A stretch of 64,000 nucleotides of DNA from assembly GCF_037042905.1 (NCBI RefSeq), contig NC_087250.1:5148001-5212000 (forward strand). Reading direction: 5' to 3'. Positions within the stretch are counted from its first letter, which is position 1; each line of letters starts with the position of its first letter. Positions 2,214 to 29,553 of the stretch are shown in pieces. The notes under the pieces were generated by a model. The model saw only the letters and a list, made by a program, of their open reading frames with translations, searched no databases and was not told the origin of the DNA. Made by a program: the position numbers and the translations under genes. This stretch comes from Lytechinus pictus. Taxonomy: Eukaryota.

Positions 2214-2227
2214 ATTGTGTCGCCGTT

Positions 2228-2235: not shown

Positions 2236-2244
2236 GTGTAATTC

Positions 2245-3180: not shown

Positions 3181-6079
3181 CATAGAGATGTATACTAACT
3201 ACGCTAGAGTGCGGAGTCGCCATAGGCGCGCGTACTTAACGTCTGTGATTGTGTGGAGCGTGGCGGCCATTGCTCGATAGGTATAGATTCGCAAAAGTAC
3301 CCGGATGTACCCATAGCTCGTGCGTTGTAACGCTGTGAAAAGGGGTGCCGTCTCCGGCCTTTATCTTGAAGAAAAGAACACAACCTCATAAAAATCGAAA
3401 ATATGAATGACAAATTGCATCTCAATACACTATTAGAGTGATTACATGGGGATTATGCTATTAATTTGGCATTTTAAAAACCTGATTTCTCGGGATGAAA
3501 TTCTAAATAATTTGCATTTACCTGTCCGTTTATAGGCCTGTAATAGATAACAATGTTGATATACTATCATATAAACAATCATATAAAAATAAAAACATAC
3601 AGCGGACATTAATAGAAAGATTGACAATTAATTCAAAAGACTGCAGTGAATTAGCCCTTCTCTGGATTTCCCTACCTTTAACTGCATCGTCCTCCTTCCA
3701 TCCTTCCCACATTTACGTCCTTTGATTCTATGTTTATGTTGGATATAATTTTGTAATTTCTATATAGGCCTACATGATATGTAACTTGCTTTAATTTGTA
3801 TGAAATATAGGCCTATCATTTTTATACATTAAGTTGTACAATTAATTCTGTATAAGTTAGTGTTTTGATCTACATGCGCTATTAAAGGGCATCTCATTAT
3901 TGTTCTTGGTGAGCCTCCCGTTACACCATCAATGTTGAAATTTGTGTTATTTGGTGAACGTGCTGATTTTGTTCTTATAGGAACATAATAAATTCCCCAA
4001 AATCTGCAGGCCTATATGGCCCGAAAATAAAATATTGATTTAAAATGTCGAGAATATAGCCTAATTTGTTCAAACTTTTAAAAAATGACAGTTTTAATTC
4101 CCTTCACTTTAAGTTAGATTTTTTTAATTCGCTTTTTAGGGGCCGTGTGTGCAATTAAAATAACAAACACACCTAAGCAAATTCGCTTTAACATACTGAT
4201 CAAAATAAAATACAGGGGGCGCGACCGGACCCCTCCCTGAAATGAAAATGAACATTACACATAATAAATGATTGTGATTTTATGCACCCCATCGCTTTCA
4301 AAATCATTCCGCGACGCCGTAACATAATAAAATAATTTTGTTCATCCATGGAAATCTTATTTAAAAAAAAACGATCGAATACTCAAACTCAGGTCCATAG
4401 GCCAGCAAATGACATTAAAGGAAGAAAACTAGAAAATCAAATTCAGTTATACTTTTAAAATGAAAAACAAAACTGGATATTCAAAACGCGTGTTTATCTG
4501 TTTATATGTTAGGCCGGTGCCAGTGCTTACAAATATTTGCCATAAAGTTCATTTATTCAAGCGACACAGACACAGTTAATTAACACAATTTCAAGGCAGG
4601 TATCAAATTTGAGATTAAATTAGGATTTTTAATATCTTATTCCAAGTATTGTCACTTTTGCAATATTATTGTTTCATAATTATGTTTGGTTTTAGTACTC
4701 ACAATTTTGCAACCGTTTTCATAATTATGATAAGTTTGCATTGATGTCTTTCATGATATTAGTTTTATACACTCTTGCAGTAGTAATAATATTCTTTATA
4801 GTATAATACAAATTATATATCATAATCCCGCCCCTTTTCTTCTCTCCTTCTCCCCCTTCTTCCTCTCCTTATTATTCTATCCTTGATTTGTTCACATGAT
4901 ATTGGTCCAATCATTATAGGATCAGAAACAACGGCGATAAACAAAATATTTCAGCCAGTTTGCCGATCAGCATATTTTCAGCCGGGGAGAATCAAGTCTA
5001 TACTTTCCAGAAAATCAAAGTGAAATTGTTTTGCGCATTGTGATTTGTTTACTCTCCGAAGTTTTAAAATGTTTGCAAGGCAATAACACTGTACATAAAC
5101 ATCCAACCCCCCATTAGGCCTCCTGTACATTGCAAAATTGTACGACTGCATGCGCGCATTTGATATGCAAATTTTGCTGTCAACAAACTTTTCTATACAT
5201 TGATCGCAAGTAAGAAAGTATACTTTTATATACATATTTATAAATATGATGGGATGGTTGCCAGCAAAGGAAATCTAAATCATCAATTTTTAACTGAATC
5301 AATGCGTAAATCATTTCCAAATATCAATAAAAAGTCATTTTATGATTCGCGAGTTTTTGTGATGTTGGTTTACATCAGCGTGTAAGACATGGGGAAAAGG
5401 GATCGAGTTATTATAGGCCCTATTGTGTAGATATATATGGAAAATGAATTATAACAATTATCTAAAGTGAAGAAATAAATTATCAGCAATCAGCATAATA
5501 GTAATTAGGAAACTATGAACTATAAAAATACAATCGTGGTTTTTTTTTCGATACAGCGTCTCAGATGCATCAGACACTGTGATATGGCCTATGAATTTTC
5601 TTAGGTTAATGTACATCAAATCATATTAAAACACATTAAATTTATTTATCAGGACCTAGGTCTAAATGTTATTTTTGATATTCATCTCTTCCAAATCATT
5701 AGAAAATAGAAGTCATATTAATGTATCGAAATTTTACCTAAGCAAAAACAATTGGGACTTTAAATCGTTTGCCTGTATTATAGCTGTATCGGCCTATATT
5801 ATGCGCTATAGATAGGCCTATATAGGCCTTTTGACCTCAGTTTTGCTAGATTTTTGTTGTATTTGAACTTTAATCCAGTGCAATATTTACAATTTTGCTT
5901 TTCCATATGCTTTCGTGCTCAATTTGTCATGTTCTGTGCTCATCCGTGTACATGCCCCATAGGTACTGTACGCGCATGGCAGGCTGCGAATACCTATCGA
6001 GCAATGGCGGACGGTCTCCACGTAATCACAGCGATTTGACGAAGTACGCCCTCTAGCGTTACTAGTATACATCTCTATG
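3181..6079. mobile_element. Non-autonomous hAT-like DNA transposon (2.9 kb)
   Basis: Termini CATAGAGATGTATACTA / TAGTATACATCTCTATG with about 100 bp of imperfect TIR; perfect 8-bp TSD CAGTGCAC at 3173-3180 and 6080-6087; no transposase ORF. Confidence 0.85.
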
Positions 6080-6351
6080 CAGTGCACTCATCACAAGCTG
6101 TGCTTTCTGAGTTGCTACCTCCATTGTTTTGTTCAAGTTCATAAAAAGTATTGAAGCTTTATCGTTGGAAATAAATGTACTTCATTAATTCACTATGTGG
6201 ATATTTGACGAACTGCTGGTAGACCAAATGATAGTAGACGAGTTGATAATTGGACGAATTAGCATTGGACCAAATGAAAATAAACCCTATTTACTTTCTA
6301 CTTTCACCCGTTGTTCAAAGAGCTTGCCCTCTGCATTATAATTGTTTTCAG

Positions 6352-6518
6352 GAATCTTCATTGTCGGTGCCAAGCGCACTCCTTTTGGTACCTTTGGTGG
6401 TGTTCTAAAGGATAAGACTGGTACAGACCTTGCTGAAGTGGCGGCCAAGGCGGCGCTAGCATCGGGCAACATCAACCCTGAAATCATAGATACCACTGTC
6501 ATTGGAAATGTGGCACAG
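6352..6518 (+). CDS. ACAA2: Mitochondrial 3-ketoacyl-CoA thiolase, coding exon (GIFIVGAKRTPFG...GNVAQ)
   Basis: Thiolase N-terminal KRTPFG motif; ag/gt boundaries; 167 nt. Confidence 0.95.
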
Positions 6519-6560
6519 GTGAGGACTTAACAAAGGCTAAAAAGACTTAGTGCAACTTGA

Positions 6561-6633
6561 AAAAAGAAAGAAGTAAGAAAGAAAAATGAGAAAGAAAGAA
6601 AGAAAGAAAGAAAAAAAAGAAAGAAAGAAAGGG
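6561..6633. repeat. (GAAA)n microsatellite
   Basis: Direct reading. Confidence 0.9.
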
Positions 6634-6729
6634 AAACCGGGAACATATGTGATCTCATTTTCTAAATATTCAAAATCTATTACAAAATTGTTTAAAAATC
6701 CACAAACGCCATTTTTAATAGTCCTATAT

Positions 6730-7020
6730 TTATCATTGTCTTTATTATATCAATTATAATGTTTTCATCTTTGTCAATATTATAATCAGCAGTAATAATG
6801 TAGGTCGTAATATTATCATAATTTTCATTATTATCACTGTAGGTGTTGCTATCATTGTTGTTGTTGTTGTTGATATTGTTATTATTATTCTTATTATTGT
6901 TATTATTATCATCATCGTTATTATCACTGTAGGTGTTGTTAACATTATTGATGTTGTTGATGTTTTTATTATTATTTTATTATTATTATCATCACTATTG
7001 TTGTTGTTATAATTGCTATT
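6730..7020. repeat. Degenerate (ATT/GTT)n low-complexity tract
   Basis: Direct reading; it explains ORF 6754..6945. Confidence 0.85.
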
Positions 7021-7096
7021 TCAAGATTTGGTGCCACTTGGTAAAATTTCATATCCATGGCTGACTCTGGTAAATTTTTGGGCCATTTGTCACTAT

Positions 7097-7407
7097 GGCC
7101 CGTATTCTGAAGTCGGGTTGAATTTAAACCCAGGTTTAAAGTTGTGGTTTAAGTATGGGAAGCCATAAGTATCAAAATTATTAATAAGTTGTATGTTTCT
7201 TATGTTTACTGCGCTCTTTCCTGATTCATCGATGGTAAAGACAATAATCTGCTTATACTTCCTAGACAATTATGAATGATTTGAGAGCCAAATGAGCTGA
7301 AGTATGATATCTCTACAGGTAGTGATTTATGTAACAATTGGCTATCCATACTTAAACTACAGCTTTAAACCTGAGTTTAAGTTAAACCTGATATCAGAAT
7401 ACGGGCC
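7097..7407. mobile_element. Harbinger-like MITE
   Basis: TIR GGCCCGTATTCTGA; a second copy at 22939-24149; an adjacent empty-site duplicate indicates a 3-bp TSD. Confidence 0.8.
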
Positions 7408-8348
7408 TTTATCTTTAAGCCTTAGATTTCTATACGGCAAGTCCCCATTTTCTCGCGGACACATTTTTATTGTTAATAGAGCATGAAAAGAAAGAAATTT
7501 TTTGGGGGCCATTTGTCACTTTATCTTTAAGCCTTAGATTTCTATACAGTAAGTCCCCATTTTCTCACAGACACATTTTTATTTTTAATAGAGCATGAAA
7601 AGAAAGAAAAAAAAAATGATAAAAGAGGGACACAATTCCCAAGGCTACTAATTGGAGTCTGAGGCAAATCATAAAATAGAGATGAAATATTAAGGTTTAA
7701 TAAAAGAGCATGTTTTTGCAATAATTTTGTTTCATAATGTTGAAAGTACCCATATTTTGTATCATTTGAATGAAGTGAAATATTATTACAATTGATTTCT
7801 TCTGGGAAGTACATTTTTAAAGAAGCAAGGATGTTGGAACAAATATATTAGGGTTTGGGATTTTTTAAGCAGCCATCCCAATATACACACTAAATTGCCA
7901 TGGGAATTCTGTAAGTAGCCAGAATGATAATTTGATTTTCAAACAGTAAAAATTACGAATCTGAATGAGTAATTTCTTCTTCATACAGTCAGAATTTGAC
8001 ATTGGGCCTTTTCACACTTGAATCTTGAATTATCATTCTAATGATGATTGTTATTGTAATCGAGACTTTGATTAGCGTTCGCGATTCTCTAATCATCTTC
8101 TAGTTTGGTTTCACATGTGCTATATATTCGTCATTAGTCTTATTTTTCACTGGAATCATCATTCAAATTACGATTTTTTTTACCGTGTGAAAGGGTGGAT
8201 GTTATGTTAAATTAAATACAAAATAAAATAATTTCTTGGAGTCCTTTTTTGTGGACTATTTGGAAGATTCACTGAGATTGCAGTGTGCACATCTCATGCT
8301 TGAGTGAACCAAAACTTGAAACCTTCTTTTCTCCTTTTTTTTTATTAA

Positions 8349-8901
8349 AGGAAACCAAAACCCAAGAAGAGAAGCAATCTTATTGGAAAGAGTAAAATGA
8401 GAGGAGCAATAAAAAAAAAGTTTCATCAAAATCGGTTATGAAATAAGCAAGTTATGGACATTTAAAAAGTCTTTTTACAAGTACTTTTTATGGGATTTCA
8501 AATTGGCAAACATGCTTCTAAATGCCAAATTTTGTGGACAACTCTCCATTTGTTTTGTACACAAATATTCAGATTTTCCTCATTATCTTTCAAATTGCAT
8601 CTTGCCTCCTGAGCACAACATATGTCATGGGAAAATATAATTCACACCGCATATGTCAAGGTCACGAGATGATGTGAAATATGTTAAATAAAGGGGAACA
8701 TCTGAAAATTTGTGTACAAAACAAATGGAGAGTTGTCCACAAAATCAGCAATTTTGAAGCATTGCCAATTTGAGGATCCCCATAGAAAGTACAACAAGAC
8801 TTTTTATTTCATAACCAATTTTGATGAAACGTTTTTTTAATTGTTCCTCTCATTTTACTCTTTCCAATAAGAGTGCTTCTCTTCTTGGGTTTTGGTTTCC
8901 T
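8349..8901. mobile_element. TTAA-flanked long-TIR MITE (Kolobok-like)
   Basis: TTAA|AGGAAACCAAAACCCAAGAAGAGAAGCA...TTTCCT|TTAA with about 240-bp inverted arms. Confidence 0.85.
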
Positions 8902-9031
8902 TTAAGCTCTCACTGAAGTACTTGTGTTTTATGATTGATCAGTAATGAAAAGTATTGCATCCTGTGATTATCATTGTTATTATTGTTTCAAACAAAAGGC
9001 ACTTATGATGTTTGTTTCCAAGCTCAATAAA

Positions 9032-9386
9032 ACAAAGCTGCCAACCAGTACGTTTTTGGCGTATTTAGTCCTTTTTTTTTTTTTTTTAATTTATTGAGAA
9101 AAATCATCCCTATACAGTATGTCTCTTTAATATGGTTATTGGGTCAATGTAATTTCAGGTAAATTTTTTTTTCAATCATTTTGTTAAAACCAGGGTGAGT
9201 TATGCACATGTTTCAATGTTTTTTTTTCATCTGCAAGAGCAGTGCGCATTTTAGCTGGCATGCAGCTTGAGTGCTGCAATGAGCGCGCACGCCACGCATT
9301 TTATTATGAAATACAGTTTTTATTGGGAAAAAAATGTTTTTTTATCACAGAATACAATTTTTCATTCTCAGAGGTTGGCAGGTCTG
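9032..9386. mobile_element. hAT-like MITE (CAGAGCTGCCAA family), degenerate
   Basis: Internal sequence matches the copy at 23299-23743. Confidence 0.65.
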
Positions 9387-9626
9387 ATAAAATATCCAAA
9401 TTCTTTTTGGGCAAGTTATTGTCGGTTTGGGGTTGGCAGGTCATATTTGTTAGAATCTTTGATCAAGTTGAGAGTTAACCCATTGCCTGCTGAAACCGGG
9501 TTGTCCCTGTACAAAGCCGGAAACTACAGAATCCATTAATGGGATAAAAGTTGTAAAAATCAGAGATAAAAGGAAATGTCAGAAATGTGAATATTCATCG
9601 TTTACCCCTATTTCTCTTTCTACTAG

Positions 9627-9755
9627 ACATCGCCAGATGCTGCTTACACCGCCAGGCACGTTGCACTCCGCTGTGGGGTACCCATGTCGAAGCCCGCCCT
9701 CACTGTTAACAGACTGTGTGGGTCCGGGTTCACTTCGATAGTAACAGCTACGCAG
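9627..9755 (+). CDS. ACAA2: ACAA2 coding exon with catalytic Cys (TSPDAAY...TVNRLCGSGFTSIVTATQ)
   Basis: Thiolase NRLCGSG active-site motif; tag/gtaaat boundaries; 129 nt. Confidence 0.95.
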
Positions 9756-10118
9756 GTAAATGACATACGTACGCCATAGGAGTGCCATTCTCAGAAGAAC
9801 GTAATTCATTTTCCCAATGTTTTGTCTTGTAGTCTGGCAATCTTGCACAGTTTTTTAAACATTTTGTTTGGATACAAACTGGTGGCAATACAGAGAAACA
9901 GTATTTTATGGAAAACTTCTTCCCCAGTATCTAGTCAGTGCTCCTGAAAGTAAGCACAAATATTAATCTTGGGATGAAGAAATACAGGATTTATTTTCTA
10001 AATGTGTTCGAATTTGCAGTACCATTGTAATGCCATAGGGCGGGGGTATAAATCACCTTCAGTGATATTTCTAGTAATGGTAAGTCTAATTATTCATTCT
10101 CATCTTTACTATTTTTAG

Positions 10119-10235
10119 GAGATATTGGCCGGTGATGCCGAGGTCGCTCTGACCGGGGGAACAGAGAATATGAGCATGGCTCCCTACACCCTGAGAGGGG
10201 CAAGGTTTGGCACCAAACTCGGCGAAGATCAGAAG
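10119..10235 (+). CDS. ACAA2: ACAA2 coding exon (EILAGDAEVALTGGTENMSMAPY...RFGTKLGEDQK)
   Basis: GGxExMS thiolase motif; canonical splice sites; 117 nt. Confidence 0.95.
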
Positions 10236-10326
10236 GTATGATACAGGCAAAATAAATATATATTTTTTTGGACTACTTGTCACAACAAATTGCTTAAAAC
10301 CGCAGAATTGGATGTATAAGCTTTAA

Positions 10327-10920
10327 AGGACAAGGCCACCCCAACAAAAAGCTGATTTGAATAGAAAGACAAAAATCAAACAAGCGTAACACTGAAAATT
10401 TCATCAAAATCAGATGTAAAATAAGAAAGTTATAACATTTTAAAGTTTCGCCTATTTTCTCAAAACAGTTATCTGCACATCCTGTTCGGTATGCAAATGA
10501 GGGGACCGATGACATCACCCACTCACCATTTCTTTGTATTTTATTATATGAAATATGAAATATTTTGATTTTCTTGTCATTGTCATGTGAAAAAAAGTTT
10601 CATTCCTCCCTAAACACATGGAATTCCATTAACATTTTGTGGTTCAAGCAAGGGGGTCCTAATTGTCAAATTCGTGAAAATTGAAATATTGTATAATTCA
10701 AACAATGACAAACAAAAGAAATAGTGAGTGAGTGACATCATCAACTCTCTCATTTGCATATCACTGAGTTGAGCATAGAACTGTTTTGTGAAAAATAAGC
10801 GAAACTTTAAAATGTCATAACTTTCTTATTTTACTTCCGATTTTGATGAAGTTTTCAGCGTTATTCATGATTTTTCTCTATTTATTTAAATAAACTTTTT
10901 TTCTGGGGTGGACTTGACCT
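10327..10920. mobile_element. TTAA-flanked MITE (Kolobok-like)
   Basis: TTAA|AGGACAAGGCCACCCCA...TGGGGTGGACTTGACCT|TTAA; inverted AAATTTCATCAAAATC subterminal motifs. Confidence 0.8.
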
Positions 10921-11183
10921 TTAACAATGCAATGAACGAAGAATTTTGGGGGCTCTTTTTAAATTTTTGAGGCTCTTTGATCATTTTGGTCCCCTGCGTA
11001 TTTTTTCCTGGTAGAGTATGTTCATGGTTTGTCATCGTTGATTACTGGGGCCTGTTTTGCAAAGGGTTACAACGATTGTAACTTTGCCATTATGGCAACT
11101 ACCATGGAAAATCTTGATTTTGATTGGCTGCCCTACCATGTTACCATGGTAGTTGCCATTATGGCAAAGTTACCATAGTTTAA

Positions 11184-11888
11184 CCCTAAGAAGACGGGGG
11201 GCTGATTCACACATTTTTCGTGATAAATCCGCCGTGCGAAATTTTTTGACCACGTAGCTCACTGACTTTTTACATTCAAGTCTCGCGCAACTTTTGAGAC
11301 CAAAATTGCGACCCCCGGGTACGCTGTTCCGAAATTACGCAACATTTCGTAAGTGCGTGCAGACCCAAAATTGCTCAAAAACATGAATTTGTGTACAAAT
11401 CCAATGAAAATAGTATTTTTAGTCAAATTCATGAATGTATAATTATTTTCCTTTTACTGATTAAAATAATTTAATTCCATCTTATTTATGGTAAAAATAA
11501 AGTCCCCAAAAATTTCCATTGAAAAAACAATAAAAACAGAAAGTTGAAAAACAGAGAAATACATAAAGAAATTTAGAACACGATGAAATACATTAGAAAA
11601 TAAATGTGATTTTGAAATTTTGATCAGATTCATATAAAGTGTCTGTGTACCAAAAATGGGCATTTTAGGGGCATTATTTAGTTATTATTAGAAAAAACTT
11701 TTGATTTTATGCATAAATTAGCATTATTAATTAGCAATGAGATTTTTCACAGAATTTGATCTTGTAGTTTTGAAGATTAAGCCATGTGTAACGTACGTGC
11801 CATTTTTCGTCGTGATTGCACCATCGACGGCCGAGATCATAAGCGGGGGGGGGGGCTGAATCAGCCCCCAGTCTATTTACATGTAAGG
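11184..11888. mobile_element. TTAA-flanked CCC-terminal MITE (piggyBac-like) nested in a Harbinger-like MITE (~11047-11912)
   Basis: TTAA at 11180-11183 and 11889-11892; inverted GGGGGCTGATTCA ends. Confidence 0.6.
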
Positions 11889-11944
11889 TTAACTCTTCAT
11901 GAACTGAGCCCCGGGTGATTTGACAAATTAATATAGGGTATTGC

Positions 11945-12185
11945 GCACATATCCACATTGTTAGGTGCTCAAGGCGCTCCTATAGTACCCGGCTAAGCTA
12001 AGCGTTCATAGCGCACACAGCTTTTTAAGGAATTACTTCCTACCGGTACCCATTTCCTCACCCGGGTTGAGTGCAGCACATTGTGGATCAGTTTCTTGCC
12101 GAAGGAAATTACGCCATGGCTGGGATTCGAACCCACGACCCTCTGTTTCAAAGTCCAAAAACTAATCCACTGGGCCACAACGCTC
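11945..12185 (-). mobile_element. tRNA-derived SINE
   Basis: On the - strand: A-box-like TGGCCCAGTGG, B-box GGTTCGAATCC and a conserved AAATGGGTACC body; near-identical copy at 37850-38077. Confidence 0.85.
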
Positions 12186-12413
12186 CAATTAGTGTTCTGT
12201 GCAATAGCTGCTGTGTACTCGAATCCATTGTGAGGGCTTTGTGGTCTAATTGTGATAAACATCTGACATTTTCTTCTCGGAAACAATAAACGTATCTTTT
12301 AGAGATGAATCAGTAGTGTATCCAAACACTTGGCTGATGTTGGCGATCAGCATAGGAAATTCATGAGGCAGACGGACGATTTCGCCCTCGTGACAGCCCA
12401 AATCACCCCTTAA

Positions 12414-14884
12414 AGGAGAACTATATTGATTATGAATGTGGTCTTATTATATGTCAATGGAAAGGTAATGATGTGGGGATTATCAGTGGGTCATTCAAAA
12501 ATAACGAAAATAATACATAAGGTGAAAATCGCCGATTAAAAAACGCTCAAAATGCCTCTCCGAAATATGCCTCGCATCGCTCTCTGAATTGACTTGAATT
12601 TGATGACGTCACTTTCTGTACGAGATGCGTGATTGGCTCTCCCACGTGAAGCTCCACTTGCATGCAAAACCTGTTGCGAGGGTACGTTTTCTCCACACTG
12701 TTACTGAATACTTCGATCACGAAATGAAAGAAAACCCAGAATTTCATCTAGATTTTGATTTTTAAATTGATGATTTTGAAGATGAAGAGAATGATGATGA
12801 AATGAACAACAAAGTGACGTAGTTGGAGGTAAATTGGGGGAATTACGCCGATGATGATGAGTCGGACACTTCAACTTGCAACACGATCACATGCCGATTC
12901 GCTACCTAACTCATGCAGCTGCTAAGTGCTAGCTACACCGCGCGGGCCAAATTGAATTCATGAAAATGAATTACCACACTGTCCAGAAAGAGTCTCTTAC
13001 CTCTGTGACTATGAAGAAGGAAAATAATGATAAAACTGTACTTACAAACAAGTGAATGTAATCCGAACCTGAAGGCAACTCAACGAATAGCAGCAGACGA
13101 TATGCACCGACGATAAACTTCATGTGGCTGGGATAGATTGTCACTCGTTCTGTTAGATGTAATTTTTATCTCATTAATTTGACAAAATTACGAAACTCGG
13201 GAATTATTTATCTATATAAAAATATAGTAACATCTCGTATTATTTTTTAAATTACGATAAAACCTTTTAAAAGCTCGTATATGTGATCGTAATCAAAATC
13301 ACAAACATGCCGTATTGCTTGATCGCCTTGGCTGAGAGAGTAGATCTATGCACGTGTTGCACAGCTCTCAATCAAGCTACGCATGTTGGGGATCTTTTAC
13401 ATCTAATTTTAATTTACCTCAACGTTTTCCTTCAAAAAACGTTTTATCGTAATTTAAAAATCCCAGCCACATGAAGTTTATCATAGGTGCATATCGTCTG
13501 CTGCTATTCGTTGAGTTGATTTGCCTTCAGGTTCGGATTACATTCACTTATTTGTAAGTACAGTTTTATCATTATTTTCCTTCTTCATAGTCACAGAAGT
13601 AAGAGACTCTGTCTGGACAGTGTGGTAAGTCATTTTAGTGAATTCAATTTGGCACACGCGGTGTAGCTAGCACTTAGCAGCTGCATGAGTTGGTAGCGAA
13701 TCGGCATGTGATCGTGTTGCAAGTTGAATTGTCACTCGTTCTGTTAGATGTAATTTTTATCTCATTAATTTGACAAAATTACGAAACTCAGGAATTATTT
13801 ATCTATATAAAAATATAGTAACATCTCGTATTATTTTTTAAATTACGATAAAACCTTTTAAAAGCTCGTATATGTGATCGTAATCAAAATCACAAACATG
13901 CCGTATTGCTTGATCGCCTTGGCTGAGAGAGTAGATCTATGCACGTGTTGCACAGCTCTCAATCAAGCTACGCATGTTGGGGATCTTTTACATCTAATTT
14001 TAATTTACCTCAACGTTTTCCTTCAAAAAAACGTTTTATCGTAATTTAAAAATTATACGAGATGTTACTATATTTTTATATAGGTAAATAATTCCCCGAG
14101 TTTCGTAATTTTGTCAATTAATGAGATAAAAATTACATCTAACAGAACGAGTGACAATCTATCCCAGCCACATGAAGTTTATCATAGGTGCATATCGTCT
14201 GCTGCTATTCGTTGAGTTGATTTGCCTTCAGGTTCGGATTACATTCACTTATTTGTAAGTACAGTTTTATCATTATTTTCCTTCTTCATAGTCACAGAAG
14301 TAAGAGACTCTGTCTGGACAGTGTGGTAAGTCATTTTAGTGAATTCAATTTGGCACGCGCGGTGTAGCTAGCACTTAGCAGCTGCATGAGTTGGTAGCGA
14401 ATCGGCATGTGATCGTGTTGCAAGTTGAATTGTCGATCCGACTCCTCATCATCGATTCCCCCAATTTACCCCCAACTACGTCACTTTGTTGTTCACTTCA
14501 TCATCATTCTCTTCATCTTCAAAATCATCAATTTGAAAATCCAAATCTAGATAAAATTCTGGGTTTTCTTTCATTTCGTGATCGAAGTATTCAGTGACAA
14601 TGTGGAGAAAACGTACCCTCGCAACAGGTTTTGCATGCAAGTGGAGCTTCACGTGGGAGAGCCAATCACGCCTCTCGTACAGAAAGTGACGTCATAAAAA
14701 ATCCCCAATTTCGCGGACGTAATTCTGCGTGTTTGAAGCATTCAGAGAGAGAACTTTAAACTATCAATTAACTGAGTTCCATCGGTCTCCATGATAAATG
14801 ATGTACACCATCGTGTTCTCCTTTTTTTCTCCTTTGATTTGATATATGATTCTCCATTTTTACGATTTTCAATATATTTCTCCT
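12414..14884. mobile_element. TTAA-flanked element with a large internal foldback and duplication
   Basis: TTAA|AGGAGAACTATATTGA...TCAATATATTTCTCCT|TTAA; internal inverted arms about 12603-13262 and 14033-14695. Confidence 0.8.
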
Positions 14885-15149
14885 TTAAATCCCCCAAAAT
14901 GTCTGCTTTGGGGCGACCATCCTTTCTAGAGTCGCCCCAAGATCTGTCACAAACAGTATTCAAGATTGTTTAGAAAAGTAGAATTGTAACTATGGCAGAA
15001 TAATGATATTTACTTTCACTGCATACATGTAATTGCGTGTTACCCATAAAAAAGAAACCCTTAAAATAAAAGAAATAGCACCCAAAATCCTGCAATCGCC
15101 CCAATGATGACACTACAATGCCTACAACCGTGCACCTGCCATGTACCTC

Positions 15150-15980
15150 TTTTCATGTACCTCTTTTCATTTTAAGTTTTATTTTTTATTTGTACCACTC
15201 TCCTCTCCCTCCCTCTTTCCTTTGTCTCCTTTTTACTCCTTATTACTATTTTAAATTTATCATTCTTGTCATTGTTGTTATTTAAATTACTTTCTCTTAT
15301 TTTGTAGTCGCTTATATGCTTCAATTTTAAATTTTGTAGATTTCTTGTTTTAAGCTTGTCTCCGTCTCCATGATTGTATATAGCTTTGTTAATTCGGTTT
15401 GAAACTAAGTTTACAGGGACTTGCCTTTTTATACAAGCATTGGTTTTCTTGGCAAGTCTGGGTCTCCTTTTTTCTCAGGACTTATTACTATTTTAAATTT
15501 ATCGTTCTTATCATTCAAATTCAAATTCAAATTCAAATTTATTTATTTCACTTCCATCAAACAAAAACAAATTGTATACCATATATAAACATAAATATTT
15601 GTATCCGTTGCAAACAAAATTAATGATACATATGTTGTGAAAAAAACACTTAGACAATTTCGGCAACACATTGTAGGTTTTAAATATGTATACTAATTTT
15701 TCAATAGAAATTAAATTAAGATGGAAATGGGGGGACCCACTAAAAAGCAATGCTTGTACAATGTGGGCCCCTCAAAAAATAGATAACACAACAAATAACA
15801 AAGTATAAATACAGATAATCAAATGAGAAAAAAATAAATACATTCACTTGATTAATCTTTTATATTTGTATATGAAATGTCATTGAACTGTCTGTATTAT
15901 ATTGAATATGTACTATTACTTTGATTATTTTGTTTATTTTGTTGAACGGAAATAGATAAATCTAAACCTATAATCTAAAT
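15150..15980. mobile_element. Two antiparallel nested LINE 3' UTR/tail remnants
   Basis: Stem-loops at 15418-15458 (+) and 15731-15772 (-); - strand AATAAA followed by a (TTTGAA)n tail at 15512-15548. Confidence 0.55.
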
Positions 15981-16274
15981 GTAGAAAAAAGATAGCACCT
16001 AAAGATAATTTTTTTTTCCTACCCTGAATGTGATACATTGTGTTCCTGGTTGTATGTGTACATGTATATTCTTTACCACTGTGTATTGCATATCATGGAA
16101 GTGAGTAGGAAAGTTGCTGGTTGTTTTCTTGTTGAAACAATTAATATAATAAGTTTTTATATCTTGCGGTGCAAGTATGCTACCGGATGGTATTCAGTCT
16201 CTTCTTGTTTTATAAAGTGGCATTGGCAAAATTAATGGCATGTATCTTTTTTCTTTTTCCTTCATACATTTTAA

Positions 16275-16671
16275 AGATAAATGCCAGTTGTGGTAACGAT
16301 CTCAAGATGATTTTTTACAGAATCCAATATAATGACCACCCAAGTGTCTGTTTGTATGAATAAAAAATTTGTGCCAAAGGATTCTGGAAGAAATTGTGTG
16401 ATTGCTGAGAAATAAGCAAAAGAAGCACGGATTCGGGCACTTCCGTCGGGTCTTTATTCCAGCGATAATAATATACACTGTCCCACGTGTGCCTATCTGT
16501 GTTGGCGATCTTCAGTGTGATCGTTTTTCAGCTTAGATTTTATGATTTCACAAAGTTCAGTTTATGTAACTGTACCAGATCTAGATCCACGATGATATAG
16601 TAATACTTAACCTTGGTTTTACAGACTTTCTCACAAAATCAGTGTTTTGCTGCAACAACTTTCATTTAGCT
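16275..16671. mobile_element. TTAA-flanked MITE (Kolobok-like)
   Basis: TTAA|AGATAAATGCCAGTTGT...ACAACTTTCATTTAGCT|TTAA; a related partial copy starts near 16926. Confidence 0.6.
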
Positions 16672-17199
16672 TTAATGATTAAACAAATGCATGAAGAGCC
16701 AATTTCAAATCACTACTTATCTTCTTATCAACTTCAAGTATTATCAAGCATACAAATTCAAAGTTCAATTGATTTGTTATTTTAACCAACCCTCATTAGT
16801 ATGCATTGAAACGTTCCAAAGCCAAGTGTGTGATAATATTTGCTGGTACAATGTAGCTGCATACCTATACAAAGTTCTTGAAAAATTTTGCATTCACGTG
16901 GTTTGCGTATGAATATTCACATCATTAAGATAAATTTCAGTTGCGGTATTCCAATCTCAAAATGATTGTGAACAGAATCTCATTAAAAAAAATTGTGCAA
17001 AATGAACTGGAAGTACATGTAAATGTGTAATTGCTGAGAAATGAGCAAAAGAACTGTTTTCACAAACTATTGCTATTGAAAATTCACTAACTTTGTTAAT
17101 AGTTATCTGATTTTGATGAAATTTTCAGCATTTTGCTGGGTGAAGTTTATTATATTTCATATTTGAGTATCATTATTTTCAGCCCAGCATAGCCCTTTA

Positions 17200-18355
17200 G
17201 GATATCTTTTGAGATTTTTCACTTTATTTTTTTCTTTAATTAGCATGAGGACACTATATAGGCAAGCATCGCTGACACACGCTTCTAGAATGTAGATATC
17301 TGTTCAGAATATTTCTCCCTATATTTTCATTTGATTTGTTGAGGACATCCTAATGGCAACCCACACTAATGCACAGAGTAAGACGCCCATGGGTTTGAAA
17401 GATATCTGTTGATATTTCTTCCTAATTTATATGTTTTTTTAATTTGATGAGCTTGAGGACACCCTATGTGCAACCCTCACTGACACACACATCTAGATAC
17501 CTGTAAAGGATATCTGTTGAGAATATTTCTCCCTATTTTTTTCATATTATTTGTTATTAAACATGAGGGCATCCTACATATGGGCAACCCACACCGGCGC
17601 ACACATTAAGACGCCTATGGGTTTAACAGATATCTGTTGAGGTTTCTTCCTAATTTATCTTTTTTTTTTATTTGTTTAGCTTAACGGGCTACTATCACTG
17701 ATGCACAAATCAAGACCTCTATGAGTATAAGGATATCTGTTGAGATTTTTCCTCTTAATTTTCTTTTTCTTTGTTTACATGTAGCTTGAGGATACCCTAT
17801 GGCAACCCTCACTGATGTATTCATCAATATGCCTATGGGAATAAAAAAGTTTTCTCTTATTTTCTTTTTCCTTGTTTAGCTTGAGGACACCCTATGGCAA
17901 CCCTCACTGATGTACATATCAATATGCCCATGGGAATGAAGAATTTTTCTCTTATTTTCTTTTTCCTTGTTTAGCTTGAGGACACCCTATGGCAACCCTC
18001 ACTGATGTACATATCAATATGCCTATGGGAATAAAGAATTTTTCTCTTATTTTCTTTTTCCTTGTTTAGCTTGAGGACACCCTATGGCAACCCTCACTGA
18101 CGCACACATCAATATGCCTATGGGAATAAAACAGTTTTCTCTTATTTTCTTTTTCCTTGTTTAGCTTGAAGATACCCTATAGGAACCCTCACTGACGCAC
18201 ACATCAATATGCCTATGGGAATAAAACAGTTTTCTCTTATTTTCTTTTTCCTTGTTTAGTTTGAAGATACCCTATAGGAACCCTCACTGATGTACACATC
18301 AATATGCCTATGGGAATAAAGAAGTTTTCTCTTATTTTCTTTTTTCTTTGTATAG
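17200..18355 (+). repeat. Tandem array of 11 degenerate copies of an ACAA2 3' splice site plus the first ~60 nt of the following exon
   Basis: Unit = polypyrimidine tract + AG + CTTGAGGA(C/T)ACCCTATGG..CCCTCACTGA..CATCAA..GCCTATGGG. Exon-like starts near 17244, 17338, 17452, 17562, 17680, then at 17785, 17880, 17975, 18070, 18165 and 18260. The true exon starts at 18356. Confidence 0.95.
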
Positions 18356-18503
18356 CTTGAGGATACCCTATGGGCGACCCTCACTGACGCACACATCAAG
18401 ACGCCCATGGGCATCACGGCAGAAACACTTGGAGCCAAGTATGAGGTCACGAGAGAAGATTGCGACGAGTTTGCTTTACTTGGCCAACAGAGGTGGGCTG
18501 AAG
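18356..18503 (+). CDS. ACAA2: ACAA2 coding exon (LEDTLWATLTDAHIKTPMGITAE...QQRWAE)
   Basis: Thiolase MGxTAE motif; tag/gtagga boundaries; 148 nt. Confidence 0.95.
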
Positions 18504-19836
18504 GTAGGAAGTATTACAGTTTCCTGTAGGCTTTTCTTTTGTTTCATTTGATTTAATTGTGTTTTTCTGCTTTTTTGTTTTTGTTTCTTGCAGGGGTGTT
18601 CTTGTCTTTTTTTTGTTTTACATTGCTGTAACTTGTTATTGAAAATTTGGACAATGATTTGTTTTCAGCTGACACTGTATGGAAACAAGTATAATCTTTA
18701 CGTGGAGTATAAAATGACGAGATACACCATTATGGACTTAAACTACATACCCCAACCCCCCCCCCCCCAAAAAAAAAGAAAGAAAGAAGAGGAACGCCCG
18801 CAGCAAGTGATATTTGATATTACTGTCTTTATTCAGTCTCCATTTGCTCACGTACAAAAAGTAGGCATTGTACAATTACTTATAACACACGGTCGATGAG
18901 AGACAACGCATAGTTTGCTTTCCCTTTCATAGCCAGTTGGTAATTGTAATGGTATCGATTTGATTTGATTTATTTTTTCTTCTGCAGTCATAACAATGGT
19001 ATACAATACAATTTTCATTACGTAACAAGCATAATATATCAGTAATTGATTTTGGTATTAATCATAAAGAAACAAATACAAAATAAAAAAGTCATTCTAA
19101 ACAAATATGATCTACTACCAACAAAGAAAATTGGCCATTTACAGTTTGCAAAAGGATTGCTTGAAAAAAAATGACAACCCCGGAAATGGAAATGGTTTAT
19201 TGAAAATTCATTTGCAGCAAAAGCCTGAATTGCAGAATATTTTACCCCCCCCAAAAAAAATCAATGAGTTATCATTGAAGTTGGTCTATTTTACAAGACT
19301 ACACTGTTCAGAATGTTGCATTATGGGTTAGAAAGCTGGCCAGATTGGAGATGTTGAGAACTTGAGGTGGGGCTATTACGACTGCTGGTCAGTGTGCCCT
19401 TCAAATCTAAATATATATATTGGGCGATTCCGTACGTGTCGTACAGGACATTTCGACAACAATATCTAGTCTCTGCTGATTGCTTGAGCAATAACAATTT
19501 ATTTCTTGTCAATAATAAAATTATAGTTATCTATAGTAGTAATAGTAGTCTTGTGAAAAACTGTTTGATTATGGGTAAATTACAGGTGAAAATAGTGTGT
19601 GTTGTACGGGACTCAGAAATGTCCCGTACGACACGCTACATTTTCACCTCTAATTCACCCATGGACAACATATTTTTGTTGGTTGACATTTTTTTACATG
19701 ACTACCCAGTAGTGAGTAGTACTATTATTATTACCACAAAATACATTGAAGTTTGTTTGGACAGTAGGTTGAAAAATATTGTGAAAATGGCTGATTTTTC
19801 TGGCATGGAATCGCCCTATTATGTCTTCTTTTTCAG

Positions 19837-20009
19837 CCAATAAGGCAGGGATCTTTGACGCTGAATTGGCACCCATCGAGCTCGCCACCAAGAAAGGACC
19901 AAAATCGGTGACCACCGACGAACACCCTCGCGAGACCACCATGGCTCAGCTCGCAAAGTTACCGCCGGTTTTCAAGAAGAACGGTCTGGTCTCGGCAGGG
20001 AATGCCTCG
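19837..20009 (+). CDS. ACAA2: ACAA2 coding exon (ANKAGIFDAE...DEHPR...LPPVFKKNGLVSAGNAS)
   Basis: DEHPR and AGNAS motifs; cag/gtaagt boundaries; 173 nt. Confidence 0.95.
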
Positions 20010-22032
20010 GTAAGTACACTTGGAATATGTATGTTCAGAGTATTTCTTCACTTCTCAAATTTGATCAGCATTTCCGGGGCCAGTAAGATAAAGCTTAGCA
20101 ATGATTGTAGAGCATTTTTCTACAATTGATTGTGAATTAAATTGTAAAAGTCAAGCGTACGATCAATCACTAACCTTTGTGTCAATACGGGGCCCATGTT
20201 GTAAGAGAAAAGCTTTCAACTATGTTGAGAGCATTCCTATGTAGAAAAAGATGTAATCTTAGCTCTGATATCCAATCAGGCAGTAAATATGTATGATAAG
20301 TATTTGAATTGCCTTGTTAATTTTTTGTGCGCTGGACCATGAACCCCTATGTGCTGAATTATTTTCAGGCAGGGAGACAATGGATTGTTTGTTTGAGCGT
20401 CAAATGTAAAGTTTGCGCGTCACCGAGTGTGCATTGGTGCAAAGTATGCAGGGAAAGGGTTAAAGAAAATAAAGACATTGCTGGGAGAGGGCACAAGATA
20501 TGTATTAAGTCAATTATCAAGTTACCACTAAAAAATTATACAAGATTCAATTCTCACTTGTCTAAAAATGGCATGTTAGAGTGATGTTTTGGATGATACT
20601 TAAGTATAATCCACATTATGGACTTAGACGTGCTTATATTATTTCCCTCTTTTTCTGTTTCTACAATGGTAACATGACAGGACAGCTTGTGGCAACATTT
20701 TCTCCCGTGACAATTGCTCCAGGCTTAATTAAGATGTAGGGTCAGGTTTAGGGGAGCAATAGGGTTTTATGTAAGGGTTTAGGGTAGGGTATAGTGTTAA
20801 ACCCGGGCTATTGTCGTGGGAGCAAATGTCATGGAACAGGACAGCTTTCGGCTGTGTAACGCCAAGCTGGCATAAATGAATTATTTACATAATGTTTGAA
20901 ATATTTTACTTCTAAGTTAATATACAAAATAATGAATGTTTATGAATGCAATGGATAGAATACTTCATGAGGTGAAAGATGAAATGATCCAGTCAACAAG
21001 GCGTAGCCGAGTTGAATGGATCATTCATTTCATCTTTCACCGAACAAAGTATTCTGTCCAATGCAGGAAAGAAAAGAACATTCATTATTTGGTTTATATG
21101 ACACCTAAAGATAGATTTTTTTTCATATGCAATATGTGAATTTCGAGGCAAAATATGCTCATGCAGTGCGAGCTCGGTCTGTTGATTATCGCCTACATAC
21201 AACATGCGCGCTGCAAACATGAGTGGTGCCTGCAGTCTGGGTGCGCATGCAATGGACAACATCGTAGGGATCCGAAATTGCACAATGAATGGATCCAATA
21301 TTGCAATGTTTGATAACGTTATTGTAAAATGGTCCGAATGATCGATACCGACCAACCAATCAAATGACAATGGGCTATTCCACGGTTACTCACGTTACAT
21401 TTGGAGACACCTTGACTCATACTTGGAGCTGTAACTCCATTATTATTGATAGGAACTAAACATCTCTTTATCACAACATAGTATGCAGTCTGACTATTCT
21501 TTGTATAAAAACAAAACTTTGGAAATTTCATTATGCTCCTGCAAATCTTTGAAATGTGTCGGTTACTCATGTTACATGATTTGGACATGCATAAAATGAA
21601 AAGTGGACATAAGTGAAAAGTGTCCTCATGCAAGGCTTTTATGAAAGTTGATTATATCCATTTCAAAGAAGTATATTAGGGAGACAAATTTGTATATAAT
21701 TAAAAAAATAAAGAACACATGGTTTTTACTAGGGGTGCAGATAAAGTGGTTACTCACGTTACAGTTCAGATGGGCTATATGTACAAAGACACATTGAGCT
21801 CATGTCCACCAACCTATGGAATTGCCCCAATGATCTATCATATAATCAGTCATAGTGGTTGACCTTAATATAGACATCAGATATTACTATGGAACCTTTT
21901 TGATTAAAGCGAAGACAATGTCTGGGCGGGGATTTGAACTTACAACATCATTATCAAGAGGCCAATCCTCTAACCACTAGACCACACAACTCCATAATTA
22001 CTTCTGTTAAAATCCTTATGTCTGTTCACTAG

Positions 22033-22233
22033 GGTATCTGTGACGGAGCAGGAGCGGTGATCCTAGCCAGCGAGGAAGCAGTTACCAAGCACAACCTCAC
22101 ACCACTAGCCAGGCTAGTCAGTTACAACGTTGCCGGCTGCGACCCTAGCATCATGGGTATAGGACCGGTATATGCCGTAAGGAGTGCCTTGGAGAAAGCC
22201 GGCCTGACGCTCGATGATATGGACCTTGTAGAG
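22033..22233 (+). CDS. ACAA2: ACAA2 coding exon (GICDGAGAVIL...GCDPSIMGIGP...DMDLVE)
   Basis: DGAGA and MGIGP motifs; tag/gtaagt boundaries; 201 nt. Confidence 0.95.
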
Positions 22234-22525
22234 GTAAGTCCTTACCTATAACCTAGCTCGCAGCTTTGTGTTGTGGGATTTCGTTAAGCTGCATATTGCT
22301 CGAAGGCAGAAAATCACTGTCAAAGGCAGCCCAGTGCCTTTGAATGTCTTTGACAGATATATGGCGCTATACAAATGCTGTGCATCATCATCATCATAAC
22401 TCCGGGACGTCCCGGAAAGTCAAGGAAAGCAGCAATTAAGTCATGGAAAAGTCATGGAATTCTGTTTTCAAATTTCTGTGGGAACCCTGAAAATGTTTGT
22501 CACATTTTCATTTCACTATTTGTAG

Positions 22526-22681
<156 letters not shown>

Positions 22682-22938
22682 TAGGTCAATTTCCTCAGGT
22701 AATAGTGACTCAGGAGGGAGGGGGGGGGGGGCAGGGGAAAAAATTACACGTGGCTCGGGGCGATTTTACGCCTGAAATGCAAAAAAAAAAAACCATTCAA
22801 TGCAATGTTAACCCTAGGCCCCCCCTCGACATTTTTCATGATAAATCCATCATCTTCCATCAGATAGATGGAAGAGGATGATCTATGCTGAATAAGTTAG
22901 GAAAAGCATCAATAACGCTTGCTTTTGTTGGAAAATTA

Positions 22939-24149
22939 GGCCCGTATTCTGAAGTCGGGTTTAACTTAGACCATAACTCTGTGCTCAAATTATGGGAAGC
23001 CAAAAGTGTCAAAATTTGTATGTTTCATATGTTTACGTTGCTCTTTCCTGAGTCATCGATGGTGCAGACAATAATCTTATTTATACTTCCTACTCAATAT
23101 AAATGATTTGAGAGCCAAATGAGCTGAAATATTATTTCTCTACTGTTAGTGATTTATGTAACAATTGGCTATCCATACTTAAACCACAACTTTAAACCTC
23201 AGTTAAAGCGACCTTTCATTGACAAATCATGGAGAAATCAAGGCTTATCTCAGAACAGAGAAGGGATTCAAGTCTTTCAGTCGGCTGCATGCCTGGGGCA
23301 GAGCTGCCAAGTAGTACGATTTTTCCGTATTTAGTACGTTTTTGCAACCAAAATACGGCAGTACGTTTTTTGTATTTAAAAAAAAAAAAAATCATCTCTA
23401 TATGTCTCTATTTCATAAAACGTACACAAATATGGTTATTAGATCAATGTAATTTCAGGTAACTTGTTTTTTTTTTTCAATCATTTTGTAAAAACCAGGG
23501 TGGGATATACACAAGTTTCAATGTTTTTTTTTTTCATCTGCAAGAGCGGTGCACATTTTAGCTTGCATGCAGCTTGAGCGCCGTGATGGGCGAGTGCGCC
23601 AAGCATTTTATTATGAAATACACTTTTTGGGGGAAAAATACAAAATATTTATCTCACACAGTAAAAATACTGATTTTTTTGTCAAAATACTGATTTTGGG
23701 GGATAAGAATACTGAAAATGCAAAATACAACTTGGCAGCTCTGCCGAGGGTGTTATGTTATAGACGCGGGTATGTCTGGGAGGTCTTTAGGAGAGCATTA
23801 TTTAGTAGACTAACCAACCAGAAGTAAATTAGTTTTCACTTTGAAACATGTAACTTCACAGAGGTTGTTTTTTTTTTGTTTAGCAATCAAGAGACCTGTT
23901 ATGAGTCTAGGAATTGGGATTGTTGGAAACTGGAACTGCAACGATCCGAAGTAAATAACCATCACGAGTTCGGTCAAATTTGTGCTGTCCAAACTTCTAT
24001 CGCATTAGTCCGACGGGCGCTCATGACGGACGGATTATATTATGCAAGTCAATTGGCCTTTTGCAAATTTCGTATTGATTCAATTTCCCCATGATTTGTC
24101 AGTGGCTGGGCCCTTTAAAGTTAAACCCAACTTTTTAAGAATACGGGCC
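22939..24149. mobile_element. Harbinger-like MITE containing a Kolobok-like MITE (23207-24114) that contains a hAT-like MITE (23299-23743)
   Basis: The outer element rejoins across the TTAA TSD to match 7097-7407; inner TIR CAGAGCTGCCAAG / CTTGGCAGCTCTG. Confidence 0.8.
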
Positions 24150-24245
24150 ATAGTATATAAAGAACTGTGGCAGTGGGTTCGATGCATCAGGTCGTTAACT
24201 GGTTTAAATTCAAACTTCTTTATTCCTTTTAATCTTTTAATGCAG

Positions 24246-24330
24246 ACGGAGAGGCAATAAATACGGTGTTGGTTCAGCGTGTATCGGTGGCGGACAAGGT
24301 ATCGCTGTCATTCTAGAAAGCCTGCAATAA
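24246..24330 (+). CDS. ACAA2: ACAA2 terminal coding exon (RRGNKYGVGSACIGGGQGIAVILESLQ*)
   Basis: CIGGGQG second catalytic Cys motif; TAA stop at 24328-24330. Confidence 0.95.
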
Positions 24331-27856: not shown

Positions 27857-28150
27857 AGGTAAAAATGGCAGAGGTGAAAATGGCAGAAGTAAAAATGGCA
27901 GAGGTAATAATGGCAGAGGTTAAAATGGCAGAAGTGAAAATGGCAGAGGTAATAATGGCAGAGGTGAAAATGGCAGAAGTAAAAATGGCAGAGGTAATAA
28001 TGGCAGAGGTAAAAATGGCAGAGGTAAAAATGGCAGAGGTAAAAATGGCAGAGGTAATAATGGCAGAGGTAATATTGGCAGAGGTAAAATGGCAGGGGTT
28101 ATAATGGGAGAGGTAAAATGGCAGGGGTTATAATGGGAGAGGTAAAAATG
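27857..28150. repeat. 15-bp minisatellite (AAAATGGCAGAGGTA)n
   Basis: About 15 tandem units, producing the spurious MAEVK-repeat ORF. The flank 28116-28220 is inverted at 29254-29354. Confidence 0.9.
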
Positions 28151-29553
28151 ACAGCTCTAAGTAAAATATGGCCAGTCTTAAACTCCCATGCAATGAATTG
28201 CCAAAAAGCCCCCGCATGTACATACATTAAATAAGAAGTGCATGTCACGGTTAGGCATTTCATCATCATTATGTCTTCATCGGCCTAACAATGCTATTTA
28301 CAAATTCATTGGAGGTGTACCGTGAACGCTTTTAAAAAAGAAATCAAACGACAGATATTTTTTCACTCAATTTATCAGGAGGAAAATGAAACTGCACTAT
28401 TCTCATTCATCATTTTATAACATTCCTTTTTGTCTGGCTGGTTTTTTCATATCTAAAAGTTTTGCCAGGTTTACCGATGCAAAAATGAGGAAGAGTAGAC
28501 ATAAGAGAGGTGGAGAGACAGAGAGGGCAAGGGGGCGGGGAAAAGCATAGAGAACATAGCGGGGAAAGCTTAGACGTTGAAATTATAACGAATGATTGTG
28601 GTTAAATATTATGTCCTTATTTGTAATGTCGTCTGTACTATTCTTTTTAAATAATTGAATGACAATAAGCATGCGTTCCCAGGCTTGGCACTGAATATGT
28701 AACTGATTATGAAAATCAATAATAATCTTGTTTTGACTGGTAAACCAATTTGGGGTCGATCGAGGGAGACCGTCTGGTTCAGATTCTTTGCATAAAAGAA
28801 GACCCTGAAACTTTACCACTGCATCCAATATGATATAAACGCCTCGATGGTCATAACTCTTGGAATCGGAAGTACTGTTGGGTATTTTGTACACCATAAG
28901 CAGCACCCTCTTGGTAATTAGCTTGGTATGCTAAAATGTGGAGATTTGATCTCTGTTATTTTTCAAACAGAAGAAAAAACATTGTTTATTATCTAATTGT
29001 TATTATTTTTGTTGTACTTCTTTTTCTGACCTGAAAGAACTTCATTTAGTTGAAATAATTTTTGGTGTCATTTTCCCCCTTAACCAAATCTCCTTTTTTT
29101 TTCTCGGCTTTTTAACAACCAGCACCCCATTTTTCATTAAATTTTCAAAAGTAAGTGGTGCTCACTCAAGCGGAAATATTTTCGACAGTTATATCGTCAT
29201 TTGCTTAAATGGATCTGTACCAATGTTAACATGTGGAAAAATCTGCAGGATTTTACATGCGGGGGCTTTTTGACAATTCATTGCATGGGGGTTTAAGACC
29301 ATATTTACCTAGAGCTGTCATTTTTACCTCTCCCATTATAACCCCTGCCATTTTGCAAAGACTATCACAAAGAACTGCATGCATAATAGCCACGATTGTG
29401 TAACAGTGACGTTGTAATTGCAAACACACAAGTAAAGTTATAAAACTTATATTTCAAGCCTAGAACTGAGTTATTCAGTCGCGTGAACTATGAAGTGGCA
29501 TGTCTGAGGAATGACTGATTATGATTTGGACTGATTCGAAGCTTAGATGTTAA

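Follow-up and report, generated by a model that had tools for sequence, protein, structure and literature searches.

Introduction

Internal tandem repeats at exon-intron boundaries have been described in human genes of segmental duplications (De Grassi and Ciccarelli 2009, PMC2812944). In that work, these repeats have long units that run across an exon-intron boundary, they alter the intron, and their arrays are thought to be variable in copy number; the human set comprises 27 intron modifications, mostly novel introns or alternative transcripts in young paralogs. In Drosophila, tandem duplication of splice signals has been described as a source of introns (PMC2891723). In cases of this kind, an AG/GY is duplicated inside coding sequence and a new intron arises; one copy turns intronic, premature stops are found there, and NMD is invoked. 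A 2007 study is reportedly to be placed alongside these splice-signal duplications.

Two further systems are related to the locus through their non-productive splice sites. In100 of caspase-2 (PMC2082412) is described as one conserved element of 100 nt, located downstream of an alternative exon; it is an intronic, non-productive acceptor-like module next to pyrimidine-rich sequence, and its effect on exon skipping has been demonstrated. In NMD-coupled poison exons or sites and in the decoy exons of intron retention (PMC6097662), a premature stop enters the mRNA when the alternative site is chosen; the known cases are RNA-supported and often deeply conserved.

The locus analyzed here belongs to the sea urchin Lytechinus pictus, it lies in a stretch of 64,000 nucleotides that we call the window, and all positions are counted from the first letter of that window. 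Like the human boundary repeats, the urchin array has long units across an intron-exon boundary and has changed the intron. Different from the cases in PMC2812944, all of the array precedes an exon that is itself unchanged, the host is a single-copy housekeeping gene, and each unit contains one full acceptor module plus a partial exon. Like the splice-signal duplications, it has copies that became intronic and carry premature stops; however, here the duplicated element is a pre-existing acceptor, copied 11 times, and the outcome was ∼1.15 kb of growth in an intron that was already present, not an additional intron. The traits of In100, namely branch point, tract, AG and PTB-type motifs, are all present in the urchin copies P1-P6, at the motif level only. 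Different from In100, nine AG-bearing copies of a real acceptor are located upstream of a seemingly constitutive exon, and they are known from sequence alone. Compared to the known poison and decoy sites, the older urchin copies decay, and use of any copy is hypothetical. Our search of the literature on junction repeats and decoy sites, in which species and gene names were outside the queries, returned no description of the locus. The locus is an unusually regular junction-spanning tandem repeat, of a kind already described in human duplicated genes.

Results

The array lies in a predicted ACAA2-type thiolase gene

The plus strand of the window contains one thiolase gene, with parts at 6351..24330 (Table 1). 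As judged from its domains and best matches, the gene is a mitochondrial 3-ketoacyl-CoA thiolase of the ACAA2 type. The initial annotation had proposed this identity, and it agrees with the Pfam domains, with chain 4c2j_A as best match and with the named orthologues. Exon by exon, both Thiolase_N and Thiolase_C of Pfam were found over the cut-off. Among solved structures, the best match of exon C and of exon D (18356-18502) is chain 4c2j_A of human mitochondrial 3-ketoacyl-CoA thiolase, with E values of 2e-9 and 1.1e-14, respectively; the runner-up for exon D has an E value of 3.1e-5. Residues 6-396 of P0021, a protein of 396 residues that its source assigns to Lytechinus pictus, match the window exons exactly (100%). 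The first exon, which codes for MALTR, was not found by regular-expression search in 1-6400. In the 811-Mb genome, the thiolase locus of the ACAA2 kind is single.

The array is located in the intron between exons C and D. Exon C ends in phase 0 and is followed by a GT, as expected from the donor that had been assigned to position 10235; the intron downstream of exon D is 1332 nt in length.

Table 1. Features of the thiolase gene and of the junction array, in window coordinates
Feature	Position	Strand	Remark
Coding exons, first four of eight	6351-6518, 9627-9755, 10119-10235, 18356-18503	+	exact match to P0021
Coding exons, last four of eight	19836-20009, 22033-22236, 22526-22681, 24244-24330	+	exact match to P0021
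Exon C, 117 nt, ends in phase 0	10119..10235	+	residues 1-38 align with 125-162 of 4c2j_A
Exon C donor, AAG/GTATGA	GT at 10236	+	real donor
Array-bearing intron, 8120 nt, phase 0	10236..18355	+	array at its 3' end
D1, distal copy, 95 bp	17201-17295	+	AG kept (next base 17244); unit alignment
D2, distal copy, 106 bp	17296-17401	+	AG lost; unit alignment
Donor-like AGA/GTAAGA in D2	17378..17383	+	6/9 consensus positions
D3, distal copy, 108 bp	17402-17509	+	AG kept (next base 17452); unit alignment
D4, distal copy, 120 bp	17510-17629	+	AG lost; unit alignment
D5, distal copy, 103 bp	17630-17732	+	AG kept (next base 17680); unit alignment
P1, transitional copy, 117 bp	17733..17849	+	linker still present; post-AG base 17785; unit alignment
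P2-P6, five 95-bp copies, post-AG bases 17880, 17975, 18070, 18165, 18260	17850..18324	+	
True acceptor module, last repeat unit	18325..18355	+	tract, AG at 18354-18355
Exon D, 148 nt, begins LEDTLWATLTD	18356..18503	+	residues 144-192 of P0021
Exon D donor, AAG/GTAGGA	18504	+	real donor

Eleven copies of one intron-exon junction precede the real one

The real junction is directly preceded by 11 copies of the 3' splice junction of exon D, which are arranged head to tail at positions 17201-18324. TRF reported the regular part of them as an array at 17782-18411, with a period of 95, 6.6 copies, 92% matches, 0% indels and a score of 997, which is the top score among the 27 TRF rows for the window. 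In a local-alignment scan that used the true junction (18325-18420) as probe, 11 copies were recovered between 17216 and 18317, with scores of 46-126 and identities of 73-89%; in the rest of the window, no further junction copy was detected on either strand at a score of at least 36. TRF and the scan thus confirm the tandem junction array with a 95-bp period that had been noticed in the initial annotation, and the first bases after the AGs of P1-P6 and the first base of the true exon lie where it had placed them.

The units of D1-D5 and P1 start with a GATATCT linker, which had been noted in the distal part and occurs six times, at 17201, 17295, 17401, 17509, 17629 and 17732; the units of P2-P6 lack it. 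In P2-P6, the unit consists of one branch-point-like CTTAT, one identical 30-nt stretch of tract plus AG, and ∼57 nt derived from the exon. The first ∼56 nt of exon D served as template for the repeat. The last repeat unit also takes in the 31 nt that directly precede the true exon, on which point the initial annotation is corrected. Each unit holds both intron-end signals and exon homology, and the array abuts the true junction, which makes it a junction-spanning internal tandem repeat. The array is an intronic minisatellite that spans one intron-exon junction; the structure claimed for it, with tract, AG and exon-derived part, is visible in the unit alignment.

A genome-wide search with the unit (811 Mb) returned three matches, all of which are self or offset self matches, and no other locus. 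Sixteen probes, covering both ends of the eight exons, revealed no extra copies of any of the other 15 junctions of the gene. Rfam gave no match in 16000-19500 at E values up to 1, and no stop-to-stop open reading frame over the array exceeds 64 residues inside the copies. A mobile-element origin of the array was also considered, and was ruled out, as the unit is found nowhere else in the genome.

Other tandem repeats were reported by TRF in the window. One 15-bp minisatellite with the unit AGGTAAAAATGGCAG is located downstream of the thiolase gene (27857-28154, 20 copies, 85% matches); each AGGTAAAAATGGCAG unit contains a donor-like AG/GTAAAA and a CAG. Two more repeats lie at 46028-46381 (140 bp, 2.5 copies, 92% matches) and at 58439-58799 (∼100 bp, ∼3 copies, 76-78% matches).

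The copies differ in age

The five 95-bp copies P2-P6 are 87-98% identical overall, with 98% between P2 and P3, 96% between P4 and P5 and 95% between P5 and P6; P1 is 84-86% identical to them. Compared to the true junction, identity is 82-86% for the P copies, 78% for P1 and 59-80% for the distal copies. In the distal part, D2 and D4 are 80% identical and D3 and D5 are 74% identical, whereas adjacent units share 65-67%; this shows an old two-unit higher-order repeat and confirms the dimer structure noted for these copies before. P1-P6 have one missing G and further changes in common relative to the true exon, which points to descent from one founder unit. The 1-nt shortening recorded in the initial annotation, TGGCAACC versus TGGGCGACC, is present.

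Signs of decay are visible in several copies. The AG is gone in D2 and D4, the tract of P1 carries a 6-nt insertion, and the exon-derived part contains three CpGs in the true exon but zero or one in each of P2-P6. Within P2-P6, 0 of the 30 tract-plus-AG columns is variable, compared to 13 of the 65 columns elsewhere (Fisher p = 0.008, one post hoc test); of the 13 variable columns, one lies at a CpG. The invariance of tract and AG may be due to chance, to conversion or to upkeep of young decoy acceptors. No constraint on tract and AG like that of P2-P6 was found in the older copies.

The last AG as the authentic acceptor

As judged from protein and alignment evidence, the last AG (18354-18355) is the authentic acceptor of exon D. 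The full-length annotated protein P0021 is built from this AG. In the alignment with 4c2j_A, residues 1-38 of exon C correspond to residues 125-162 of the chain and residues 1-48 of exon D to residues 164-211; the single residue in between is the last K of exon C, and the alignment therefore leaves no room for an insert between exons C and D.

One RNA contig of a relative (run X1; 396 nt, depth 51.8) is of the same tenor. Its last 150 nt match 18354-18503, and it ends exactly at 18503. The length of 396 nt equals 2 + 129 (exon B) + 117 (exon C) + 148 (exon D), where the 2 nt are the AG in which exon A and intron 1 both end. From this length arithmetic we infer that the contig is a B-C-D mRNA, with exon C joined directly to exon D, the exon C piece being absent from the matches listed. 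The initial annotation had allowed for a neutral array with the last AG always chosen; this fits P0021 and, by the same arithmetic, would fit the length of the relative's contig.

Splice signals and reading frames of the copies

Acceptor strength was assessed by pyrimidine count and donor strength by consensus matches only. On this scale, the tracts of P2-P6 have 18 pyrimidines in 20 positions, compared to 17 in 20 at the true site and 16-17 at two more acceptors of this gene. A branch-point-like CTTAT is located ∼20 nt before the AG in each of P1-P6. TCTT is more frequent in the array than in the remaining intron (1.8 versus 0.6 per 100 nt), and CTCTT is found in each of P1-P6. Although all 11 copies that had been called decoy 3' splice sites are present, only nine of them keep the AG, and among the distal copies only three of five do so.

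Read in the incoming phase 0, all nine AG-bearing copies reach a stop at codon 6, 15 or 20. The stops predicted in the initial annotation were recovered, with GAA TAA for the copies at 17785, 17975 and 18070, GAA TGA for the copy at 17880, and CTA TAG for those at 18165 and 18260. Four exon junctions lie downstream of the stops of the copies. Use of an upstream AG would add 96 to 1112 nt to the mRNA.

Recursive-like splicing, which had also been suggested, did not hold up. The bases right after the nine junction AGs are CTTGAG, TTTGAA, CATGAG or CTTAAC, thus none of the nine is followed by GT, and recursive splicing is unsupported. The sole AGGT in 17200-18355 is located at 17640, in a purine-rich linker without a tract. 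As for 5' sites, the view that the copies have no convincing donor needs one exception, the fair donor-like site of D2 (Table 1); its consensus score compares with 7/9 for the real donors at 10236 and 18504.

Public runs and other annotated models

No public run contains more than 0.21 of the sampled words, and among the runs listed no RNA or DNA run is of the window's own species. Runs X22, X23, X1 and X8 were compared with the stretch 10050-20100 at likeness 90 and share 1. Of these, X22 and X23 are raw RNA runs with the species label of a relative, and their depth over 17778-18785 is 0-0.31; most of the placed reads are 90-95% alike, match only in part, and lie on intronic high-copy repeats. 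In exon D, X1 contigs and the window disagree at 9 of 150 positions, which indicates that the contigs come from a relative. Besides the 396-nt contig, X1 has one contig of 896 nt that contains the last 28 nt of exon D, exon E and more, and one of depth 3.3 that spans 18474-18612; the latter indicates no more than the presence of unspliced RNA or of DNA at the opposite end of exon D.

The DNA-like run X8, from a relative, has two contigs that give a summed depth of 119 at 18403, whereas the depth at 18412 is only 30. The repeat homology ends between these two positions, which hints that the relative has extra junction copies as well. Between the window and a relative's DNA contig, 20 letters and 13 gaps differ over ∼358 nt, mostly intron. 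At such a divergence, the distal copies and the founder of the 95-bp unit would be expected in both species, with P2-P6 of later origin.

In relatives, two intron stretches (∼10386-12400 and 16098-16769) have very high summed depth in DNA-like contigs. RNA reads at 11730-12401 are strand-biased, with a depth of 814-2434 on one side and 87-255 on the other, and at 12055-12057 many reads continue into unlike sequence. These high-copy stretches are probably expressed transposable elements.

Two older protein models of the same named species depart from P0021. In P0002 (265 residues), 13 residues precede exon D. The first nine of them agree in eight places with the translation of D2 at 17353, adjoining the donor-like GTAAGA at 17378, and this is the only six-frame match of at least 7/13 for the start of P0002 in the window; for the next four residues (QLLW part), the back-translated pattern was found nowhere in the window. 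To judge by P0002, a second assembly of the species has a D2-like copy too. P0025 (225 residues) joins exon C to exon E out of frame and skips exon D; it matches the window at 19834-19896 and 24240-24287, changes frame within exon E, omits two more exons, and ends in the last exon in another frame. Both models were examined as proof of array-derived exons or of exon D skipping and were set aside as probable artefacts of older assemblies; for P0025, this is argued by the frame change in exon E and by the two additional skipped exons.

Two thiolase proteins lie on one contig in Strongylocentrotus purpuratus and in Lytechinus variegatus. In P0001 (389 residues), a thiolase model from a database, the peptides of exons D and E each occur two times, along with a partial exon D copy of 30 residues. 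The residues of P0001 match proteins named Strongylocentrotus purpuratus; the model may result from the merging of two neighbouring gene copies or from a further junction duplication.

Discussion

A probable near-neutral product of serial junction duplication

We favour, as the fairly likely explanation, that the array is a near-neutral product of serial junction duplication, by which the intron was lengthened by ∼1.15 kb. We infer the following order of events. Repeated unequal exchange or replication slippage over one intron-exon junction would have produced the copies. The first duplication would have taken ∼45 nt of the 3' end of the intron (linker, tract and AG) together with ∼57-65 nt of the exon, and subsequent rounds may have given the two-unit higher-order repeat of D1-D5. 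One unit would then have lost the linker and a single G, and been amplified as the 95-bp repeat beside the true exon (P2-P6). The upstream copies, which would now be intron, appear to be decaying by CpG loss, indels and, in two of them, loss of the AG, with all frames closed.

Productive mRNA would be made from the last AG at 18354-18355. Two features most likely favour this AG: no other acceptor lies as close, across the exon, to the donor at 18504, as expected for exon definition between introns of 8.1 kb and 1.3 kb, and no other is followed by the full exon. In human genes, large flanking introns go with a preference for those splice sites that lie closest across the exon (PMC9225289). Leakage to upstream AGs would lead to an early stop, and NMD would be expected to remove the resulting mRNA. 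The array probably has little net effect on the gene, and its explanation would not call for a regulatory design.

Several observations speak against such near-neutrality. The tracts of P2-P6 are, by pyrimidine count, at least the equal of the true site, hence the decoys could be used often. For human 3' sites of equal strength, PMC9225289 describes an upstream preference that is significantly reduced, not abolished, under exon definition; since the preference is merely reduced, appreciable decoy use would be compatible with it. The invariance of tract and AG in P2-P6 (0/30 versus 13/65 columns) could mean constraint on decoy acceptors, and the older model P0002 seems to start within D2.

Alternative readings of the array

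If the decoys were used often, the array might act as a poison-acceptor rheostat, in which the nine AG-bearing copies divert transcripts into mRNA that is removed by NMD, and copy number or trans-factors set the output. Each of P1-P6 has the equipment for this, with CTTAT ∼20 nt before the AG, a tract that equals the true one in pyrimidine richness, and the AG itself; all nine stops are early and far upstream of later exon junctions, and the five youngest copies keep tract and AG unchanged. There are also parallels elsewhere: equal-strength upstream 3' sites are often used in human genes (PMC9225289), and an intronic VNTR of TERT is described as changing splicing by its copy number (PMC11830802). 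We nevertheless regard this rheostat as rather unlikely. The older copies decay freely, with AG lost in two of the five distal copies and the tract of P1 diverged; the stops come from one shared 1-nt loss and one shared point change, as they would in neutral decay; and the other junctions of the gene have no array. Among the matches listed, no read or contig shows decoy use, a point of little weight given the near-blank data. That the array is a selected, copy-number-variable rheostat, capturing a tunable share of transcripts or stalling the intron, is in our view unlikely. If it were so, the perfect identity of tract and AG in P2-P6 would reflect selection for competence, and the array would be a natural tandem-decoy device that sets the output of a core beta-oxidation enzyme. 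The copies could also act without being spliced, as a sink that binds U2AF/U2 or pyrimidine-tract repressors and stalls the 8-kb intron; slower intron removal, intron retention or exon skipping would follow, like for In100 or decoy exons. The TCTT density of the array and the CTCTT in each of P1-P6 would suit such binding, and models exist in caspase-2 In100, where PTB sites lie behind a decoy 3' splice site (PMC2082412), and in decoy exons tied to intron retention (PMC6097662). However, TCTT richness is the plain outcome of copying a pyrimidine tract, and P0025, whose junction of exon C to exon E would fit skipping of exon D, looks like an artefact of an older assembly. The runs placed here give no RNA sign of retention, at near-zero RNA depth, and the X1 contig of depth 3.3 lies at the other end of the exon. 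Altogether, the sink appears quite improbable.

Two more readings concern the origin of the array in the assembly and its possible use in removing the intron stepwise. An array mis-assembled from reads of one junction is very improbable. The copies differ by 2-41%, and the differences are nested and age-graded, with indels and a higher-order repeat, which is not the pattern of collapsed or stuttered reads; P0002, an independent older protein model, carries a D2-like peptide; and the depth in a relative's X8 contigs drops across the end of the repeat homology (119 at 18403 versus 30 at 18412), a hint of extra copies there too. Recursive, ratchet-point splicing through the copies might be thought of for an intron of 8120 nt with strong internal acceptors, but no junction AG is followed by GT (0/9) and the AGGT at 17640 has no tract, which makes it scarcely conceivable.

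Implications

As it stands, the locus is a well-documented curiosity and not a demonstrated mechanism. The choice among equal-strength sites is usually studied in built minigenes; here, nine AG-bearing copies of one acceptor are arranged in nature, mostly in 95-bp steps. Use of upstream sites would make the array a drain on a metabolic enzyme, with a strength set by copy number. Should the last site nearly always be chosen, as the near-neutral explanation would have it, the locus would be a clean natural demonstration of exon definition, in which junction duplications are absorbed as intron growth.
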